Positions 12,110 to 62,676 of a DNA stretch of 64,000 nucleotides are shown here, piece after piece (the stretch's first letter is position 1; every line of letters starts with the position of its first letter). The notes below the pieces were generated by a model. That model had not been told where the DNA came from, did no database searches, and was given only the letters and a program-made list of their open reading frames with translations. Origin of the DNA: Octopus vulgaris (lineage: Eukaryota). The DNA lies in contig OX597814.1 in NCBI GenBank assembly GCA_951406725.2, positions 73,408,001 through 73,472,000 of the forward strand, read 5' to 3'. The position numbers and the translations under genes are program-made.

Positions 12110-15100
12110 ATGATTTCTTTTATTTGCCACCAAGGCGAAGGATGATGGGAGACAATACAAAGACAAACATAAATTGTTGGGAGTTTACACATAATGGAAT
12201 GATAAAATAAAAAGTATACACGGTATATATTAGAAGAAGGGAAGTATACATAGTATATAACACTAGAAAAAGAGGGGAGGAAAAAAGTGAAAGGGATGGG
12301 ATCCTTCTGATTCAGGATGAGCTCTAGGGATACTCAAGGAAATCCACTCTTGCCATTTTCGCAACTTTCACCCACCATTCCATACATTCACTCGAGGAGA
12401 GCACTTCCCTCTCCACACTGACTTTTCTTCTCAAGTGAAACTTGAAAACGTCAATAAGGGCTTTATGAAGGAGGAATGTTTCTGTACTCATTCCTTTCAG
12501 CCTCGTCCACCAGATAACCTATTTCCCACAATCACCAGACAAAGGAAAACTGTCTTGCCAGCCCGATTAAAGAATAGTGGCGGGGCAATCATCATTATGG
12601 ACTCAGACGATAAGCAGGTCTGTCCTATACGCGACAGCAGCTGTTCGACATAACTCCACAAGTCAGCAATGCCCGGACACTGAACGAATGCATGCAAAAC
12701 GGTTTCGTCGCTCTGCGAGCACCTCGGACAAGCCTGTCTGATAGCAGATCCGTGCCTGTAGAGTTAATCTCGAACCGATAGCGCCCCGCCCCCGTAGCAC
12801 TACCACGCCAAAAACATCTGGAAATTATCCATGATAGTTCCCAGCCGGAAAGTCCTCTGGAATAGACTAGCCAGTTCATCTTCTTCAACGCCTATTGTCT
12901 CTCTGAGGACGTCGTCGCACTTCTCCGCTACTAATCCTCTGTAAATACCTAAAGTGGAACATCCACCGATCCTATTGCTCGACTTGTAGAGTACAGTGAA
13001 CGCTCGACGACATTCTAAGTGCCAGGCGCCCAGTATTAGCCTATCCTTTAACCAGGACTACAGCTCCGTCAGGGAGACGAGCTACGGAAAGGCGTGTTAC
13101 AAATGGAGCCCACACACGTTCAACTTCTACAAATCGCTGCAGGTAGCGCAACCTGAGTGCGTGTCTGCGCATTAAAATCTATGGCAGGCCTAAGCTCCCA
13201 CGCAAAGGAAGTTGGCAGCAGCTTGACCGTCTGGCCATTGGAACGCATCTCTTCTACAATAAAACAAACAGGATACGCTCCAGTCTGATCAAGCAGTAAC
13301 TAGAGCAAGGCACAACGGTCAGACGATAAATATTGACAGAGGTGATGTAGGCATTCGCCACCTCTGCCCGACCTTTCAGAGACAACTTCCTCTCTGCCTA
13401 TTTCTGGGCAAGAGAGGTCAACTTGTTCATTACCTCTTCACAATTCTTATCAATCTGGAGGTCGGGACCAAACCAGACGCTGAGCAGTTTAATTGGTCTG
13501 TCAGTCCAGCGTCCGACAGCATCGATCTGCTTCTCCAGGTGCCCAGTCGCAATCCCGCCAATTTGTCGGCATTGATTTTAGCCCCTGCAACCGATTCATA
13601 TTCCTTTACAATGGAGCCGACCGTCTCCACCTCGGAAGCATCCGACACCATGACGGTGACATCATCCGTGTATGCAGACACTGCCCTCCCGAGTCCAATT
13701 TCGAAAGGGAGGCCTCTTAACTGTTCCAACTTCCGCAGCAGAGGCTCGAGAGCCATCACATATAGAAGAGGTGACAGTGGGCAGCCCTGACGGACCGAAC
13801 GTGCGATACTAAACGGTTCCGATAGGTGGCCATTTACTTTGACCACCAAGCGAGTGCCACTATGTATTGCAGTAATTCAGCCTCTGAAAACGGATCCGAA
13901 GGACTGGTTCCAATTAGCGATGGTCTACCCTATCGAAAACTCGACTGATATAAATTGATCATTGCCCCACCGAAGGCACTTTTAGCCCCAGTCCTCTTTA
14001 CGATGTGTCGCATAAGGTGGAGGTTGTTGTGGATAGACCTACTCGGGATTGCGCACGTTTGTGCCTCCTCGACAAGACTATCAACGACAAGCGTCAACTT
14101 TTTCGCTAACGCCTTGGCCAAAATCTTAAACTCTGTGTTTAGCAGAGTTATGGGCCGAAAATTCCTTAGCATGTCCCCACTGTCGGCGTTCTTTCTTAGC
14201 AGTGTTACTACACTCCGGTCAACAGTACTAGGAAATCTCCCGTTCTGATGCCAGTTACTGTAGACAACTGCCAAGAGGCTGCCAAACAAATCTGGCATGA
14301 AAACATAAAATTCGTAGAGCTGACCATCCAAACTGAGCGATTTGCGACTTGTGCAATCGCTCATCGCCTCCCGTATTTCAAAGGCTGCAATCGGCTTTTC
14401 GCAGAATCTCACGTCCGTCGCCGAGAGCCGTGGTAGGCGGTCTAGGTACGAAGTAAAGTTTGCTATCGTCGTCGACCCATCACCCTCCCCAAACAGCCGC
14501 GCAAAGTGCTGCTGGAAAGCCGCATATATCTGCTCAGAACCGAGTAGCATGTGTCCGTCCCGATCCGTTTCCACGTCGCGTTTCTACCATTCGAGCCCAT
14601 CGGACGGCTTTAGTTCCTTTGTGTTTTAGCTCACGGGCCTTAGCTCTGACAACGTTCCTTTCGTGTTTCAGCTCAAATAAATGGTCAAGGTCCATTTTCG
14701 CCGCAGATACGTCGGTCGTGATGCCTTTACTAATAGCCTCTTCTAGTTTGCTAATTAGTTCTCCCTCTTATCTATTGTTAAATATTTGCTAAACGCTATC
14801 GATTCTACGTTAATCGCTCTCTTCAGAGCGATCCACCACCGATTGTTGACGACAGCCCCCGTCAACTGTCGCTCAACTAGTTCGCTAATCCGATCCTTGT
14901 AGTCTTTGCGAGCCGGTAAGGATGCATTCAACTTCCAGTAACCAGGGCCCTGTCTACGGGTCCTATCTAAATTGACTATGCAGATCACAAATTTGTGATC
15001 TGTGTAGCCGACCAATTTAAATCCATATCCTCTGACTTAACAAATACTCTATCTAAATACGATCTGGATGGTCCGCTGTGGTTGCTCCATGTCCACACTG

Positions 15101-23339: not shown

Positions 23340-24704
23340 ATATTGCTGAACCGCAAGCAGGCCAACATCCTGAATCCAGTGAGGACTCCTTGTTTGTAAA
23401 AAATGTAACCAGACAACAACAAGTGATTACTGAAAGAGCTAATATATTTGAAATTAGTTGAGGGTTTATGGTATGGGAAATATGAATCAGTATGTAAGTT
23501 AAGGGTAATATCCAAAAAGTTGGCTTTAGTTATATCATCATCAAAAACAATGCTTAAGCCCATGTTTCAAAAACGTTTAACCCTTTGTAATTTTTGGTTA
23601 GACACATTTTGAAGGTAGAGTAGACAATCATCACGATATAGACCTCCATTGATGTTTGGGAATTGGTCAGCCATCTCATAAAGGATATATATACCGACCA
23701 AATTAACGATTTCTGCTGAATCAGAACTGCCCATCGTGACATCAAAACTGTCGGGCATATGATTACGGATCCACAGCTTGTTATCAAATTTAATAATAGA
23801 TTTTCTGGCGGCTAACACGGCATTAATTTCATCGCTGGTGAGACCTGCTTTGTTGTGTGCGAGCCAGAGTGCCTTGTTGAGTACAATTGGGTTGTTAGAG
23901 GAATAGAAACTAGAAATGTCAAACTGGATAAACTTAGTTCACTTCTTGTTATTAATAGAATTAAACCAGTCGACCACTTGCAACGAATTAGATCATAAAT
24001 TAAGCTTTATTTATTTTTTTAACTAAGGTAGGAATATATTTATCTAGAATATTTTCGCTAAGTACACCGATATCAGAGCTAGAAAGACAAATAAGTCGTA
24101 AGGCTGGGTTATTAAAAAAAAATTGTTTGTGATCTTTTAAAATAAAACGAGGCTGTTTGGGATCAAGGGGTTCAGTATTCATCTGTAAGTCATATTTCTC
24201 CATAATTTTCTTTGCCTCAAGGTTGGATTTTTTGATTGCACTTTTACCGGTAATCCTATAATTCTTTTGTGTTTCTTTTCTAAGCGATTCTAGATAATAA
24301 TCCTTGGTAAGTCTGTATAAGTTTCCTGTTTTATCCGATTGAACCAGTATCCAATTCATGCTTTGAATTTCTTTCGTGATATTGTGAAGATACCTCAGAT
24401 GTTTATGTTTAAGGGTGAACGGTGGAATTTCACATTTCTCACGATAGACCAGAGATCGTCTTCAAACTGACTCAATCTTGGGTTAGGTGGAGGATTGGTT
24501 TTAGATTTAAACAACTTTTTGAATTCAGAAGTTAGATCGTTAGAGGGGTGTTTAATGTATTTATTATCGAAGAAGGCAAGTCATAATAAAGGAGTTTGTC
24601 TTACTAATAAAGGAGTTTGTCTTACTAATGAGTTGCTTAAGGAAAACCTTCCTTAGGGTAATGGGTATATTCTTAATAGATGCGTTTATATCAAATAACT
24701 CCAT
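23340..24704 (-). mobile_element. Penelope-like element RT pseudogene (5' part of ORF)
   Basis: Begins MELFDINASIKNIPI. Motifs SDKTGNLY, ILKDHK, FDVTMGSSDSAEIVNLVGIYIL, GLYRDDCL and NFLDITLNL..YFPYHKP are typical PLE RT. Frameshifted and 3'-truncated. Confidence 0.9.
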
Positions 24705-24744
24705 GTGTAGTAACTATTTTATGAGCAGGTTATATGGAAGCCTG

Positions 24745-25425
24745 GTTGAAGTGTATATAAATGTATGTGTATTTTTTCAATGTTTACAAATAACAAGGAA
24801 ATAATAAATAAATAGTTACCAGGGAAGCGAAAATTCACACAAGTACCAAGGATGTAACAGCCTACTTATAAAGGCAGAAATTCCAGGTTTTGGTAAAATG
24901 TTTTTGTATCACATAGATAGATAAATATATGGAGTTAAACGCAGGTGATATTCAAATCTTTATACTACCGACATATGCTTCGAAGAAAACATTGATATTA
25001 TTCCAGAAGGAATAAAATGATGTAAAACAATTGTCTGGTTTAAAAAGCCACATCAGACACCATGATGGTGCTGAGGTGTATGTATAGGAGGTGGTCAAAC
25101 TCTGTATAAGGAGTAGACAACCACCATATATATATACACATACACATATAAATGTATGTGTATTTTTTCAATGTGTATAAATAACAAGGAAAAATAAATA
25201 AACAGTTACCAAGGTAGCAAAAATTCACATAAGTGCGAAGGATGTTACAGTCTACTTATAAAGGTAGACATTCTAGGGTTAAGTGAAATGTTTTTGTATA
25301 ACATAGATAAATAAAGAAATGGGGTTAAACGCAGGTGTTATTCAAATCTTTATACTTCCGACATACGTTTCGAAGAAACATTGATAGTTTTCCGGAAGGA
25401 ATAAAATGATGTAAAACAATGCAAA
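24745..25425 (-). repeat. Tandem ~390-bp-period duplication in the PLE pseudo-LTR region
   Basis: 24745-25035 and 25140-25425 share ATAAATGTATGTGTATTTTTT, GTTAAACGCAGGTG.TATTCAAATCTTTATACT and GAAGGAATAAAATGATGTAAAACAAT. Each carries a CGAA.C.TATGTC half-hammerhead on the minus strand. Confidence 0.85.
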
Positions 25426-25689
25426 CATCTCGTTACGAAAAAAAAGAAACAAAACGCATCAATAAGCCATTTTAACCTAATGTGATTACCACATATATGA
25501 TGAAAGGAACACTGGTACGTTATTCTTTTTAAAAAACGTCAAAGGTAATTTAGAGAAAGAGAACAAGGAGAAAGAAAGAAATTAACAGAAAATTAAGAGT
25601 GGAGAAATATAGTGTGATAGATGAATGGGAATGAAGCTTAAAAGCTTGGTATTAGATATATGTAGTGAAAATGAAATGTAAGAAGACAG

Positions 25690-26930
25690 TTAAAGGTTGA
25701 ATTTTATAGATTGGTAGAAATTACTTATAGGAATTAAAGGTATGTTTTTGCCAATGTTTGCCACGATAAAACGTTCTTTAAACGTGTTTACAAGAGAATT
25801 CTCCGAGAACAGAATGAGATATTGTTCTTCGTTACAGAGCGCACAAAAAGATTTACCTTTATCGTATGGAAAGGGTCTAGATAGAATATTCCATTCCAAA
25901 TCAAATTGTTTATTATCATCCTTTAGAGACCAAATTAATTTACTAAGCCCAGTATTGTTGCGTATATTAATATGTCTAAATGTCGAGTAATGGCTAGATA
26001 TTCTTTTGGACAACTGAGATGAAGAACTACCTATGTAAAAAAGACATCAGAACCGAAAGTAATTTTACATTGATAAACAGAGTTTCTAGTCTTAGAATTA
26101 CTGCTAAGGAAACGAATGCGATTCGAATTTATATCAGAAATAATAATGTTGTTGCTATTATTGTTCAAAGAATGGTTAGTGTAAATAATATCAATGTTAT
26201 TACTTTCATTAAGTGGATTTGTATTTAATAACTTATCGTTATGCGACGAGATGATTTGTGAAAGGTTTTTGGCGCTAGAAAGCTCTATTCTAATTCGGTG
26301 TGAATTAATATTCGATTAGTATCTTGAATTTTTGGGGAAATTCTTTTCTATAGCTTCAGGAATCTGATAAGAGAAGCTGGATTTGATCTGCTTACCATAT
26401 GGAATTATCAGCCGAACAGTTTTATTAGGATATAACTAGGGTAATTATCTTTAAAAGTCCTAAATTTACTTATATCACGAAAAATGAGACTTAAAGAACG
26501 GTTATCCATTTACGCTGCAAAATTACATTTTTCGCTTTAGTGTTGTTATTCGAAATGAAATTTATATTATTACCGCTATGACGTGTTTTCATGTCCTGAT
26601 TAATAGAGGTAGAATTAATGGCAAGAGGGTTAATATAGGTAATTTTTTCTTTATAGTTTGCTTTAAGTAAGGCAGAGTTATAAAATTCAGCTTTATGGTT
26701 GAAAATATCATCGCTAGCAGATAATCTATAGAGTCTAAGTGAAATATTTCTAATTAAATTCCTTGTAATAATTACTGAAAGAGGTAATAAATTTTAGATT
26801 AGTTGAGAGTTTATGGTATGAGAAATATGAATCATTATATAAGTTAAGGATAATATCCCAAATGTGTTGGCTTTAGTTATATCATCATCGAAAATAATGC
26901 TTAAGCCTATATTTCGAAAATTTTAACCAA
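25690..26930 (-). mobile_element. 5'-truncated Penelope-like element: RT C-terminal piece + GIY-YIG endonuclease
   Basis: FLHR/YIG-like region, then SKRISSHYSTFRH...TGLSKLIWSLKD...WNIL...CALCNEE. 26790-26925 matches 23440-23575. Confidence 0.85.
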
Positions 26931-28732: not shown

Positions 28733-28849
28733 TATATATAAATATTTTAATCTTCGGATTCTTTTTAATATGCTAGACCACTGGTTTAAATTGACTAATA
28801 TCAATTTCTACCCTTAATTAATTTATATATATATATATATATATATATA

Positions 28850-29032
28850 TGTAAATATAATATGTGACAATTATTCGGTAGCCATGATAAAACTCCGAGT
28901 TTCAGATGTCGGGGCCATCGTTATCGGGCCATCGAAAAAAATGAAGAGATGCCGCCGTGGGTTTCGGCCCCGACATCCGAAACTCGGAGTTTTATCATGG
29001 CTACCGAATAATTGTCACATATCATATTTACA
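28850..29032. repeat. Inverted repeat, 67-bp arms, with a mutated hammerhead core in spacer/right arm
   Basis: 28850-28916 vs 28966-29032 with 2 mismatches. Plus strand ATGAAGAGATGCCG...CGACATCCGAAACTCGGAGTT is homologous to 51126-51220. Confidence 0.92.
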
Positions 29033-29088
29033 GATAAATTCTTCTATTTACATAATATCGGGGTCTCTTTCATTCTTTTGCTGTCTTC

Positions 29089-29138
<50 letters not shown>

Positions 29139-29286
29139 CGGACCGCTTTCTACCAAATCCAGCCACAAGGATTCGGTCGGCACGAGGCTATAGTAGTAGA
29201 GACTTGCCCGAGGTGCCATGCAGTGGGACTGAACCCGGAACCATGTGGCTGATAAGCAAGCTACTTACTATAAAGCCATTCCTGCG

Positions 29287-29324
<38 letters not shown>

Positions 29325-29487
29325 GTTTGCTAGATAGACCACGTGGGTGGAAGCGGAGTACAGAAATTTACGCCTGCGCATTTTGAGTTTGTTGACACTG
29401 TTAGTTGGAGTGGTTCATCTGAAGCGACAAGTTCGCTGATAGGTAAAGTTCCTTCTTTTTAGTGTTTCCAAATCCAAATTAAGAAAT

Positions 29488-29550
29488 TTTGAGCTGACGA
29501 AAGAAATGCTGATTTTATTTGGCTAATCTTGAAACGTTGACGTACTCAAA
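29488..29550 (+). ncRNA. Canonical type I hammerhead ribozyme candidate
   Basis: UUUGAG-CUGACGA-AAGA...UCUU-GAA-ACG(UUGA)CGU-A-CUCAAA: complete core, 6-bp stem I, 4-bp plus extended stem II, stem III hairpin. Predicted cleavage after 29544 (GUA). Confidence 0.85.
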
Positions 29551-30070
29551 CGATCTATGTACTTGTGATATTTTTCTGTATTTACCTCCAAACCTTCGTG
29601 AGCTGTCTGGAGTAAACATTATCCGAGAGAAATTTTCTTTAAGTAGTAGAAATAGCTAAAAAAATTTTTTTGGCTGCTATTTCTACTAAGTTCAGTATGT
29701 GGCAAAGTAATTTATTTTACTAAGCCCTAATTATATAATGTAATATTTTGAATTCGCCTTAAATGGTCCTTTACATACTGAACACTTGGTGAAATTGATT
29801 AATTAATTAATTTTACCCTCAATTGTTGATATATATATATATATATATTCAGATATATTATATAATAGTTTCAGTATTAATAGTTTCACTATGTATCTGT
29901 TATATACATGTAGACAGTATTAATAGTGGAAGTATTAAAACTGAAAGTATTATTCCATGTTAGAATGGAGATGTTATTGTTTCACTTTTGAACGTAATAC
30001 TGAAATAATGTAAAAGATGAGATTGCAACAGGCTTGCATTAGGCCCATGACAAACTAACAACTTCTTGCC

Positions 30071-36029: not shown

Positions 36030-37300
36030 CGAGGGGCGTTCAATAAGTAATGCCCCTGACCCACTTCCCATAGCAGTAGAGCAACGAAACTTGGCACAGG
36101 TATTAGTCTTTTTCTACATAGGAACAACCCAGAGGTACACATTTCTCCCATCGTTTGATGCAGTTCTGGAGACCGTTTTCGTAGAAGACCCCAGCTTGGT
36201 CCTCCAACCACGACGTGACTTCAGAAATCAAGGCTGCATCATCTGGGAAACGCTTTCCTTTCAAAAACAACTTCATGGCTGGGAAGAGGTGAAAATCAGA
36301 GGGTGCAAGGTCAGGAGAGTAGGGGGATGGGGGAAGAGTTCATAGCCGCACGCCTGTGCTTCTGATCTGGCGACACGCAAGTTGTGGACCGGAGCGTTGT
36401 CCTGCAGGAGGGGGATGCCTTTGCTGATCTTGCCCTGCCTCTTGGTTTCGATAGCTTCTCTTAATTTCCTCAAAAGTGAAACATGATAGGCTCCTGTAAT
36501 TGTGGTACCCTTTGCCAGGAAATCTGTCATCACTACTCCGTCCTGGTCCCAGAAGACTGTGAGCATGACCTTGCCAGCGGAGGGCTGCACCCTTGCCTTC
36601 TTTGGAGGAGGTGAGTCATGGTGCTTCTACTGCATTGACTGGGCTTTGGTCTCTGGATCTTAGTGATGGACCCAGGTCAGATCCTGTGTAATCAGTCTTT
36701 TGAAAAATTTTGACTCATCTTCTTGGCACATCCCTAAATTCTTGCTTCTGGAATTCTTGCGTTCTTGCTTCTGGAAAAGTGTGAGCAACCTGGAAATCCA
36801 TCTGGCAGACACCTTTTGCATATGCAAATGGTCATGAATGATAGTTTCCACAGACCCGGTACTAATCTTGACCTCATGGGCTATTTGGCGAATAGTTATG
36901 CATCGATCTTCCAAAATGGCAGCCTCAACTTGACGGACAGATGCCTCATCAATGGCAGAAGGGGGCTACCAGATCTGGGAGCTGTTTCCACAGAGTTCCG
37001 ACCATGTTTGAATACACGATGCCAGCGTTTTACAAGGTCATATGATGGGGCATCCTGTGGTGTGCGTCATTTCAAATACAAAAACCGGATCACTGCTCGA
37101 CACTCAACATGCTCCATTTCCCACTTGACTCATTTCAAAGACCTGTAAATCAGAAACCACAATTAGTTCGGAGCTGTAATTTATCACTTAATCTATAGAG
37201 ATATCAATAATTGCACATGCAAAATCAAACAAGCTAGATCAAACAGCTAGATCAAACAAAGGCAAGTGGGTCAGAGGCATTACTTATTGAACGCCCCTCG
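36030..37300 (-). mobile_element. Full-length mariner (DD34D) transposon, defective
   Basis: TIRs CGAGGGGCGTTCAATAAGTAATGCC.CTGACCCACTT with TA TSD (36028-36029 / 37301-37302). Motifs KVSARWISRLL, GKVMLTVFWDQDG, QDNAPVH; stops and frameshifts. Confidence 0.95.
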
Positions 37301-49438: not shown

Positions 49439-50705
49439 CGAGGGACGTTCAATAAGTAATGCCTCTGACCCACTTGCAGTTGTTTGATCTAGCTGAAATG
49501 TTGCATGTGCAATCATTTATATCTCTATAGAGTAAGTGAGAAATTACATCATTTATATCTCTATAGAGTAAGTGACAAATTACAGCTCCGAACTAATTGT
49601 GGTTTCTGATTTACAGGTGTTTGAACCGAGTCAAGTGTGAAATGGAGCATGTTGAGTGTCGAGCAGTGATCCGGTTTTTGTATTTGAAAGGACGCACACC
49701 ACGGGAGACTTTTGATGAAATGAAAGTAACTTATGGTGATGTTGCCCCATCATATGACCTTGTAAAATGCTGGCATCGTGAATTCAAACATGGTCGGAAC
49801 TCTGTGGAAACAGCTCCCAGATCTGGTCGCCCCCTTCTGCCATTGATGAGGCATCTGTCCGTCAAGTTGAGGCTGCCATTTTGGAAGATCGACGTATAAT
49901 TATTCGCCAAATAGCCCATGAGGTCAAGATTAGTACCGGGTCTGTGGAAACTATCATTCATGACCATTTGCATATGCAAAAGGTGTCTGCCAGATGGATT
50001 CCCAAGTTGCTCACGCCTTTCCAGAAGCAAGAATGCGTCGAGTGCTCGAGGGTGAATTTGGAGATGTGCCAAGAAGATGAGTCAAAATTTTTCAAAAGAC
50101 TGATTACACAGGATGAAACCTGGGTCCATCACGATGATCCAGAGACCAAATCCCAGTCAATGCAATGGAAGCACCGTGACTCACCCCCTCCAAAGAAGGC
50201 AAGGGTGCAGCCCTCCCCTGGCAAAGGGTACCACAATTGCAGGAGCCTATCATGCTTCACTTTTGAGGAAATTAAGAGAAGTTATCAAAATCAAGAGGCG
50301 GGGCAAGATCAGCAAAGGCATCCTCCTCCTGCAGGACAACGCTCCGGTCCACAACTCGCGTGTCGCCAGATCAGAAGCACAGGCGTATGGCTATGAACTC
50401 CTCCCCATCCCCCCTACTTTCCTGACCTTGCACCCTCTGATTTTCACCTCTTCCCAATCATGAAGTTGTTTTTGAAAGGAAAGCGTTTCCCAGATGATGC
50501 AGCCTTGATTTCTGAAGTCACGTCGTGGTTGGAGGACCAAACTGGGTTCTTCTACAAAAACGGTCTCCAGAGCCACATCAAACGATGGGAGAAATGCGTA
50601 ACTCTGGGTGGTTCATATGTAGAAAAAGACTAATAACTGCCATGTTTCGTTGCTCTACTGCTATGGGAAGTGGGTCAGGGGGCATTACTTATTGAACGCC
50701 CCTCG
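49439..50705 (+). mobile_element. Full-length mariner (DD34D) transposon, defective
   Basis: Same TIRs as 36030-37300, located in a TA tract. MEHVECRAVIRFL..., WIPKLL, QDETWVH, QDNAPVH; frameshifts, ~60-bp internal deletion, ~35-bp 5' UTR duplication. Confidence 0.95.
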
Positions 50706-56599: not shown

Positions 56600-57270
56600 A
56601 GGATGAGAGAAAGGTGGAGGGTTAAATGTAAACCGGAGGAGTGTTGAGCCCATCTGGCGCAAAGAAGCGAAGAGTGAAGATTAATCCTTGCTCACAGCGA
56701 AGACGGGAGTCCAGAGGGCCCCTGTGCAAGGACAATCTGAACACAGACAGGTGTTGTAAAGAGTAACCGAGTTGGATGTCTCGGAGGTGTTCCACGAACC
56801 GGTCAGCCAAACCGCGTCCCGTTTGACCGATATATAGAGAAGGACAGAGAGAGCAGGAGATGCAGTAGATGACGTTGCTAGAAGTGCAGGTGAAGGAGTC
56901 AGTGATATGACAGGGTCGATGATGGTTTTCACTGCAGAGCCTGTGCAGAGGAATTGGGAATAGGAGATGAAGAGCTTGGTGTATTTAGGGTGGGAGGAGG
57001 AGAAGTTGAGGTATGAGCGTGAGTCTGTGTGTTTGTAGTGGATGGAAGTGGTGAGAGTAGAGTGATGAATGCTGACCGAAATGTCGAGAAAGGTGACTGA
57101 GGTGTCGGAAATAGTGCAGATGTGGAGGGCAGGATGGAAAGATTTGACAAAAGAGAGGAAAGAGTCTAGATGTTCGCGGGAGAGTGAGGTCGCACCGATA
57201 CAGTCGTCAATACAACGACCGTATAGTTCAGGAGTGGGACCAGTGAAACTTGAGAATATTTTGGCCTACA
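56600..57270 (-). mobile_element. Penelope-like (Neptune-like) RT/GIY-YIG fragment with internal deletion
   Basis: YGRCIDDCIG...VTFLDISV...TSIHYKHTDSRSYLNFSSSHP (RT), then FTCTSSNVIYCISCSLCPSLYIGQTGRGLADRFVEHLRDI (GIY-YIG). Confidence 0.88.
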
Positions 57271-60796: not shown

Positions 60797-61151
60797 TACA
60801 TATATATATATACATATATATATACATACATACACATATACATACATGTACATATATATATACATACACACATACACACATACATATATCAACAATTGAG
60901 GGTAAAGTTAATTAGTTATTAATCAATTTCACCAAGTATTCAGTATGTAAAAGGACCATTAGAAAATATTCTCTAAGTAGTGGAAGAGGCTAAAAAACTT
61001 TTTTGGCTGCTATTTCTAGAAAGTTCAGTATGTGGCAAAGTAATTTATTTTACTTTACTAAGCCCTAATTATATAATATTTTATACATGCATACACATAC
61101 ATACACACATACATATACACATACATATGCATACACACATATATACATATA

Positions 61152-61407: not shown

Positions 61408-62392
61408 TCAATCTGGTTGCCGGGTAGGTCTATAGTTCTTGTAGTTCGCATACTTCTTATGCATGCAATTTGGGGAGTGTTCTGAGATTTTGTTAAGGAG
61501 AGGGCCTTTGGCGAACAAGATCTCTAGGCTCTCCGATATGCAGAGGTCACAGCAGGTATGGCCTCCTGTGTACGAACGCGCCTTCTGTAGTAGTTTCCAC
61601 TTGGTCTTGAATGGGATGGAGTTCCTTTTAAGGTACCAGATGTGGGCGGCGAGGGTAGTTTGGTTGGATTTATCCTGTCGCCGGAACGAGTGTGTGTGTG
61701 CGTACCAACGGGTCTTAAAGCTGTTTGACGTCATTCCGATGTAGGATTTTCTTTTATCGTCAGGGCCTGATCTTACCTCGCATGTATATACTAGGTCCCT
61801 CTGTAGGCAGTTGTTGTTGAGGGGGCAGGTGGTTTTATCAGGGCAGTTGCAATTGCTATCGGACGTAGGATGGGCCTCGGAAAAAGTAGATATGTTAAGT
61901 TTTTTCACATTGTTGTTGGCTAGGTTCCTGGCTAGATTGGGCGTGGTAGAGTAGGAGAGTCTAATAGTGTTCTTATTTAGGATAGTGTAGTACTTATGTT
62001 GGGTGGGGAAGTGTTTCTGTAGGAGAGTGAAGAAGATTTTAGCTACAGGTGTAGCGACCTCACGGTTGAAGGGGGGGGGTTGTACCAGCTAATGTGTCTT
62101 CGTCTATTTTTCCTGGGTTGGCGTGGGGCTATACTAGTATAGGTAATCTTATCTTTAAAGCCACTGCGGGCCAGGGCCTCGTTGTAATAGGGGGCTGCGG
62201 CCTTAAAGATATCTTCCGTGGCGGACAGGCTAGAAATTCTAATTGAGACACTTTTTACTAGGTTATCTAATATATTTTTGGGGTGGTTGGAATTAATATC
62301 TATATATCTAAGGGATTCATTTGGTTTGTGGTACGGGTAATAGAGTGAGGTTTTTAAGTCGAGGGTGACGTCAAGGAAGTTAGCTTTTGTTA
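61408..62392 (-). mobile_element. 5'-truncated Penelope-like element: RT thumb + complete GIY-YIG endonuclease
   Basis: TKANFLDVTLDL..YPYHKPN..SNHP..WYNPP, one frameshift at the G9 run (62070-62078), then an open frame to CNCPDKTTCPL..LVYTCEV..YIGMTSNSFKTRWYAHTHSF..HIW..CDLCISE. Confidence 0.93.
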
Positions 62393-62423
62393 ATATATAT
62401 ATATCTATATATATATATATATA

Positions 62424-62676
62424 GGTCACAGATATGCGACGATTTCTGGACAATGGTCATCAGTAAAACTTATAGCAGTAATAAACGAGTGAAGAACGAA
62501 TTTATAGTGCATGAGTATATTTGTGAAAAAAAAAAAAAAAAGAAAAAAGAACATCCCGAAATGCAACAATATCTGCTTCAGCACACGGTTTCACATAAAG
62601 AATCTTGCAACACAAATTCATAAACATACACACACACGTATATATGTATATATATGTATATGTATATATATATCTA

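Follow-up and report, generated by a model that had tools for sequence, protein, structure and literature searches.

A non-coding hammerhead repeat of Octopus vulgaris is probably a retrozyme copied into TA tracts by Penelope-like machinery

The window analysed here is a stretch of 64,000 nucleotides of the Octopus vulgaris genome (assembly GCA_951406725.2, contig OX597814.1, positions 73,408,001 to 73,472,000, forward strand), in which a non-coding repeat bearing a hammerhead ribozyme motif lies between two (TA)n tracts. The features concerned are given below in window coordinates, together with their basis.

29291..29322, no strand: left (TA)n target tract, read from the sequence; a target-site duplication is not resolvable
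29318..29832, + strand: 5'-truncated monomer within (TA)n, about 510 of the ~563 nt of a non-coding tandem unit, from the family alignment
29488..29550, + strand: type I hammerhead with extended stem II, from descriptor scan, family comparison and covariation; predicted cleavage after A29544
29488-93/29545-50, + strand: stem I, UUUGAG/CUCAAA, from the sequence
29494-500, + strand: core CUGACGA, from the sequence
29501-04/29527-30, + strand: stem II, AAGA/UCUU, from the sequence
Between stem II and the distal helix, + strand: 3x3 internal loop AAU/UAA, from the sequence
29508-12/29519-23, + strand: distal helix GCUGA/UUGGC, from the sequence
29534-43, + strand: stem III, ACG-UUGA-CGU, preceded by GAAA and followed by A17 (29544), from the sequence
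29534..29543, + strand: the same stem III strand, self-complementary over 10 of 10 nt (two G.U); its predicted partner is a second copy, in a double hammerhead
29551..29551, + strand: position 1.7, C in the window copy and its subfamily, U in sister families, from family comparison
29644..29688, + strand: hairpin upstream of ends A and B, candidate protein-binding domain; 99% of cells paired in 16 family members
29690..29783, + strand: predicted long-range helix, 29690-29700 with 29773-29783, enclosing end B, from folding
29737..29746, + strand: end B, where the family has its other fixed 3' terminus; an internal site in the window copy; from family ends
29829..29832, + strand: end A, the 3' terminus of the window copy, passing into the TA tract; the 'tail' of about 90 nt lies between A and B
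29830..29848, no strand: right (TA)n target tract, read from the sequence
60886..61082, no strand: miniature head-to-head insertion of an older relative, with one A and one B end and without a ribozyme, inside the untranslated microsatellite of a Penelope-like element (PLE)

The first-pass annotation had described a non-coding element of about 500 bp between TA tracts, and this holds in so far as tracts lie on both sides and no open reading frame of at least 110 aa overlaps it; the stretch is, however, an incomplete unit, some 50 nt short of ~563. Its 5' junction shares the microhomology ATATA with the tract (29318-22), and the unit, which is non-coding, has a GC content of 33.6%. Since the window copy holds one ribozyme and is missing those ~50 nt, no unit-length circle could come from it alone.

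The stems, core and loops that had been claimed for the ribozyme candidate match the letters base for base, and its standing as the best single candidate is borne out by a descriptor scan of both strands of the 64,000-nt window, which returns one site (29494-29544) whose stems have 6, 4 and 3-4 pairs. With the strict descriptor nothing was found in 60 locally shuffled windows, and the loose one gave a mean of 0.017. All of the type I core elements, CUGANGA, GAAA and NUH, are present, as are the three helices, of which helix I is the open one. The description 'fully canonical' thus fits the complete core, but neither the A-U pair at 10.1-11.1 nor the C at position 1.7. In canonical motifs the conserved 10.1-11.1 pair is G-C (PMC4209133). 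Among 56 distinct ribozyme parses, the 51 with at least 5 of 6 stem I pairs form our set of clade variants, and G10.1-C11.1, which is typical and not obligatory, occurs in none of these; they carry A.A (27), A-U (13, the window copy included), U.U (5), C.A (5) or U-A (1), counts that are to be read with the sister search having demanded A at 11.1. Position 1.7 is U in 33 of the 51 and C in the window subfamily. It is probably a tertiary-contact position, at which U1.7 would meet an A of loop 2; that A is retained. Rfam returned no match of any kind at gathering score over the window and no hammerhead at E<=10 over 28800-30000, probably because the extended stem II defeats its models.

Compensatory changes are found in stem I, stem II and the distal helix of the 51 variants, while the 3x3 loop is nearly fixed. 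Across 16 aligned members 93.8% of cells pair, against 33-47% in slid controls; changes on both sides, seen at nine pairs, occupy 32 cells against 9.1 in shuffled alignments, and the covariation score is reached by 0 of 500 shuffles, with the caveat that sequences which are related can score above shuffled ones. Helix III pairs barely vary and make no contribution to this score. On these comparative grounds the type I hammerhead motif is real and under structural selection.

The form in which such a motif would be active is a separate question, and here stem III is informative. Its strands are wholly self-complementary in 36 of the 51 variants and complete but for the central base in 7 more, and the shortest stem III (6 nt) is unable to close a hairpin. 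For the window strand a two-strand duplex is predicted at -10.8 kcal/mol, as against +0.4 for the hairpin. The predicted pairing probability of stem III is 0.11-0.12 in an isolated 75-mer and 0.03-0.04 in the whole element, where stem I reaches 0.15-0.19; for the isolated motif, stems I and II are predicted to form readily. Because stem III is self-complementary and the duplex is favoured over the hairpin, modelling makes a double hammerhead the likelier active form than a monomer, and monomeric cleavage of the window motif is, by the same predictions, possible but doubtful. In the monomer's favour, a helix III of 2 bp with a tetraloop is of a type reported to cleave well in invertebrate retrozymes (main text of PMC7229834); among frog retrozymes 8 of 9 predicted ones are given as without any cleavage (main text of bioRxiv 10.64898/2026.07.22.740005). 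Folded as a circle, the cut-to-cut monomer has a z of -5.4 (40 shuffles), with stem I not formed. RNAalifold on the A1 alignment, in which the three most distant rows are misaligned, did not recover the helix 29690-29700/29773-29783. The clade amounts to a natural series of hammerhead variation, with A.A at 10.1-11.1, U or C at 1.7 and a stem III of 6-10 nt.

The wider context of the motif is a repeat family. A 508-nt stretch has matches at 96-98% identity on many contigs (40 of 2236 candidates scored), and the tandem unit consists of the window stretch plus a 54-nt linker, absent from the window copy, to give a length of 558-568 nt, typically ~563. The exact 46-nt core occurs 261 times in the genome against 0 in the control, and sister cores 945 times, again against 0; a looser pattern gave 702 matches against 63 in the control, and two downstream motifs gave 678 and 211. 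Core and stems are intact in 50 of the 52 copies inspected, and at 110 of the 110 positions compared the letter of the window copy is the commonest one in the family. Near sister families are about 80% identical, and the ribozyme is kept across families down to ~60-80% identity. The stretch is also present in public runs under five organism labels. The window motif thus belongs to one truncated copy of a young, non-coding repeat with hundreds of copies, likely a mobile family, a circumstance that the first-pass annotation overlooked; that the family is mobile and of retrozyme type we hold with high confidence. A further sister family, differing in its distal stem II and having a palindromic stem III of 6 nt, was seen at locus L277 (6236-6480, +).

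In four of four runs, which come from four studies and are guessed to be RNA, the contigs span the unit from one end to the other and read across the cleavage site, although contigs cannot reveal circles or RNA ends, and their depth is highest over the part that is common to a PLE passenger described below. At locus L059 (2140-2260), the loose contig ends of runs X1 and X5 show A-to-G changes at the majority of + strand A's, and runs of T-to-C on the other strand. The loose-end A-to-G changes in the hairpin region suggest edited RNA, with hyper-editing of both senses; the head-to-head inserts of the family would give long double-stranded RNA. In three of the three covering runs, out of four further ones, positions 29387 and 29624 have other letters in the family contigs than in the window copy. 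The flank of the window copy at 29830-29954 is covered by none of the run contigs, which proves nothing.

It had been proposed that the window ribozyme cuts, as a monomer, a plus-strand host transcript, which would make it a case of co-opted regulation. The intact core, the commonest letters at every compared position and the well-formed stems I and II of the isolated motif are what such a role would call for; yet this is one of hundreds of near-identical young copies, it has C at 1.7, its stems I and III seldom form in the predicted fold of the element, and the run contigs carry other alleles. No host gene or host exon was identified in the window, which is full of transposon fragments, so the claim of transcript truncation was not upheld, and we regard a host-regulatory role as very improbable.

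The manner of insertion is more telling. Copies appear as partial tandems, as 5'-truncated units and as head-to-head inversions, in (TA)n, with arrays mostly of 1-2 units per arm, and their outer ends enter the TA tracts at two fixed sites, A (29829-32) and B (29737-46), ~90 nt apart. Loci were chosen by full-length match for the first 30 and by motif for the others, none at random, and comprise 125 distinct insertions, 72 head-to-head and 53 direct. The head-to-head inserts divide into 62 A+B, 2 A+A, 3 B+B and 5 with an unclassed end, such that A+B accounts for 62 of 67 classed inversions (p 7e-14 against 0.5). Among loci collected after the hypothesis was stated 18 of 20 were A+B, or 17 of 19 blind, one having been known beforehand. 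Direct inserts end at A in 27 cases and at B in 15, with 11 unclassed, mostly due to one reference stopping short. Two near-identical insertion pairs 7-19 kb apart, L062/L064 (G000 C1, 33.47 Mb) and L256/L257 (C18), are probably local duplications, and each pair may represent one event.

The main texts of PMC8557442 and PMC3846280 list, as hallmarks of PLEs, insertion into (TA)n, partial tandems, a truncated copy in inverted orientation and a tail confined to one end, and the PLE tail corresponds in vitro to two start sites of the reverse transcriptase (main text of PMC11167929). Insertion of the octopus family by PLE machinery is, on this signature, very probable. The same account of the anole PLE in vitro reports a start site that is the same for both strands (PMC11167929), and, lacking a strand difference, this result does not predict the strict A/B partition. 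The repeat might instead be satellite-like, derived from a PLE terminal repeat and spread by local unequal crossing-over, a route suggested for vertebrate retrozymes in the main text of bioRxiv 10.64898/2026.07.22.740005 and one with which the mosaic units of one locus, L223, would agree; but copies are dispersed on many contigs, have two fixed ends in TA tracts and random 5' ends, and form arrays mostly of 1-2 units per arm, all of which contradicts it for most loci and leaves it a most unlikely origin.

A search for an autonomous partner found no linked open reading frame at 60 sister loci and none in 32 further PLE loci. Five intact PLE families (717-899 aa), which a cysteine motif ahead of the GIY-YIG domain, rather than a tree, leads us to call Neptune-like, have no clear terminal sequence or pLTR in common with the element; two of 30 terminal pairings scored at or above nearly all shuffles, namely F5 against the 717-aa 3' region (0/60) and F7 against the 722-aa family (1/60). 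Several of the intact families carry hammerheads built much as in the element: stem II is extended and stem III palindromic. In two of two inversions of the 899-aa family, a short end and a long end lie in TA tracts, at ~+70 and ~+225 from the family's own cleavage site. This family was seen in many identical copies (L282, L287, L280, L292; G000 C1, C3, C17) with a 3.6-kb tandem unit, a long-stem-II hammerhead and a tail of ~155 nt, as against the 30-40 nt usually quoted, and is a good candidate for biochemistry.

The window itself holds other PLE material. At 61408-62456 (-) lies a fragment of a very abundant young family (24,257 candidates), of which locus L086 (4745-6913) has a 722-aa intact frame, a 5.2-5.7-kb tandem unit and kilobases of TA/TG microsatellite; a hammerhead belonging to this family precedes the frame by ~150 nt, and its stem II starts from a U.U pair. 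We considered the family as the partner, a miniature head-to-head piece of our repeat being found in 24 of 25 loci, and rejected it: the piece is a passenger, lying in the untranslated-region microsatellite of a PLE whose ribozyme and ends are different. By eye, 28900-29090 resembles the terminal repeat of the 717-aa family and looks decayed; a copy of that family has a hammerhead-like motif with CCGAUGA replacing CUGAUGA. A decayed partial tandem at 23460-26400 (-), with a GIY-YIG end, the terminal repeat twice and RT, is ~80% related to the intact 778-aa family, and its hammerhead cores look decayed. Further transposon remnants at 56622-57265 (-), 13430-14583 (-), 36097-37148 and 49731-50639 include a second PLE type (RT and GIY-YIG) and a LINE RT (weak RVT_1). 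Two copies in opposite orientation among these remnants are presumably mariner-like, a label taken from motifs.

We conclude, with a probability of about 0.75, that the repeat is a non-LTR retrozyme, a ~563-nt non-coding hammerhead repeat for whose copying into TA tracts a Penelope-like RT/endonuclease, acting in trans, is the likely agent. In the mechanism that we propose, tandem copies would be transcribed and the hammerheads, probably double through stem III, would release unit-length RNA, which may be circularised. The protein would bind the hairpin domain downstream of the ribozyme and cut (TA)n on both strands, after which the two DNA ends would prime on the same template, one at A and one at B. 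Each cDNA would extend backwards to a differing extent, in many cases beyond one unit and past the cleavage site, and the two cDNA ends would be end-joined into head-to-head arms, or a single arm would be fixed, as in the A-ended window copy.

The two arms of inversions bear on this scheme. Opposite arms have 25 of 113 rare variants in common (52 loci), and 30 of 51 in 9 sister loci, and arm divergence is 0.66-0.86% within a locus against 2.1% between loci; the shared variants and the low divergence point to one template or one donor. The other 88 of 113 variants, found on a single arm, we read as later mutation. Arm order was compared in 54 of the 62 A+B loci, 8 with internal rearrangements or a partial reference being omitted and the segment lists of 4 being filled in or simplified manually. 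In 21 of the 54 the upstream limit of the B arm lies over 20 nt beyond that of the A arm; 3 of these may be copies of a long B arm. Arms exceed one unit in 28 cases for A and 17 for B, and both do so in 12 of 54 loci. Of 37 junctions, placed approximately, 18 have 1-12 nt of microhomology, 6 are blunt, 12 have extra bases and 1 has a longer overlap.

Inversions could also arise by fold-back self-priming of one cDNA, with the second end made by endonuclease trimming of the tail; self-priming has been proposed for rotifer PLEs (main text of PMC3846280) and endonuclease resolution of the tail elsewhere (main text of PMC8557442). The variants common to both arms fit this equally, as do the 28 of 54 loci compatible with a B arm inside the A arm and the correlation of A and B arm lengths (rho 0.39). 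Against it, 18 of the 54 A+B loci fit neither fold-back order, only 5 of the 54 have near-symmetric, near-palindromic junctions, and direct inserts end at A or at B, so that each end is used alone. The data thus argue against fold-back priming for a third of the tested loci, and we consider it improbable overall. The best fit is with two cDNAs, primed independently and then joined at their ends, and priming at both ends of the target is, in our judgement, reasonably likely.

The nature of the template is less clear. There is no pile-up of 5' ends at the predicted cleavage site (4 of 134 against 1.8 expected), and genome-wide the cut has 6 junctions among 11 matches, against 11 among 16 (9 distinct) at a control site; the templates would therefore be circles or uncut multimers. 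Arms read through the cleavage site in 59 of 68 cases, at loci chosen for carrying the ribozyme. Divergence of the terminal unit from the penultimate is 0.59% against 0.76-0.80% (p 0.12), which does not discriminate a circle from a linear template. With the same element and mobiliser, the template might be a linear, uncleaved multimer, the ribozyme and circles being irrelevant to insertion. In support of this, anole PLE insertion in vitro is described as unimpaired by ribozyme mutants (main text of PMC11167929), the arms cross the cut without an end pile-up, and the 5-unit array at L223 has heterogeneous, mosaic units, so that it is not the copy of one monomeric circle. A linear template sits less well with a ribozyme kept by compensatory changes across families and with the two long arms of the 12 loci noted above, since repeated 5' truncation would shorten arrays, and a religated circle would likewise read through the cut. 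We rate the linear multimer as a serious contender at somewhat below even odds, and a circular template comparably, short of an even chance. Asymmetric double priming in full, in which a dimeric RT/endonuclease cuts (TA)n and cDNAs from A and B both roll round one ribozyme-made circular RNA, is offered as a tentative and on balance unlikely account of Penelope-type integration. If true, it would explain the PLE tail, the inverted repeats and the retrozyme tandems in one step, and the 1,300-copy clade would offer a genomic record in which it can be counted, as well as a 563-nt substrate ready for use.

Hammerheads are common in animal repeats, so the motif alone is ordinary and the value lies in the family. 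The mobiliser of animal retrozymes and the origin of the inverted repeats and tail of PLEs are stated as open in the main texts of PMC7229834, PMC8557442 and bioRxiv 10.64898/2026.07.22.740005. Here a protein-free element displays the full PLE signature in many young copies, with a one-A-one-B rule that can be counted (62/67), and gives a short RNA with two mapped start sites that is usable in vitro. In the literature covered, the main texts outside subscription journals, Repbase and Dfam, no cephalopod retrozyme or A/B count was found, though supplements may list such; the word 'ribozyme' is absent from the main text of an octopus repeat paper (PMC13282606).

The closest relatives are the metazoan non-LTR retrozymes of Cervera and de la Pena (2020, main text of PMC7229834), for which PLEs were proposed as the mobiliser, and which likewise have one type I hammerhead per non-coding, low-GC tandem unit without an ORF. 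Their units are 150-450 nt long, as against 558-568 nt in the octopus family, and the octopus family, unlike them, has mostly 1-2 units per arm, set head-to-head with two fixed ends, and is known from genomic copies, circles being predicted; the word 'inverted' is absent from that main text. Vertebrate retrozymes (bioRxiv 10.64898/2026.07.22.740005) resemble it in co-occurring with PLEs, in forming monomers and multimers and in a unit range of 51-972 that includes ours. Their link to PLEs comes from pLTR homology and co-occurrence, whereas ours comes from the insertion signature, and the main text of that study samples no mollusc and leaves tail and head-to-head copies unmentioned. The axolotl HHR_Amex2 (main texts of PMC4209133 and PMC7229834) agrees in having a helix I of 6 bp, a helix II of 4 bp with a weak pair at its base, and a helix III that is short and self-complementary; in the octopus motif helix II is extended by the conserved 3x3 loop and a second helix, and at 10.1-11.1 G-C is seen in 0 of 51 variants and A.A in 27. 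With EN+ Neptune-type PLEs (main texts of PMC8557442, PMC3846280 and PMC11167929) the family has in common the partial tandems, the inverted 5'-truncated copy, the tail, the (TA)n targets and a hammerhead upstream of the RT starts, and it differs in having no ORF, a tail of ~90 rather than 30-40 nt and no sequence match to the five intact families. Both classes of element, and the proposed link between them, were thus already known; what the octopus adds is a cephalopod-type clade with its ~90-nt tail, its hammerhead variants and a counted rule of one A and one B end.
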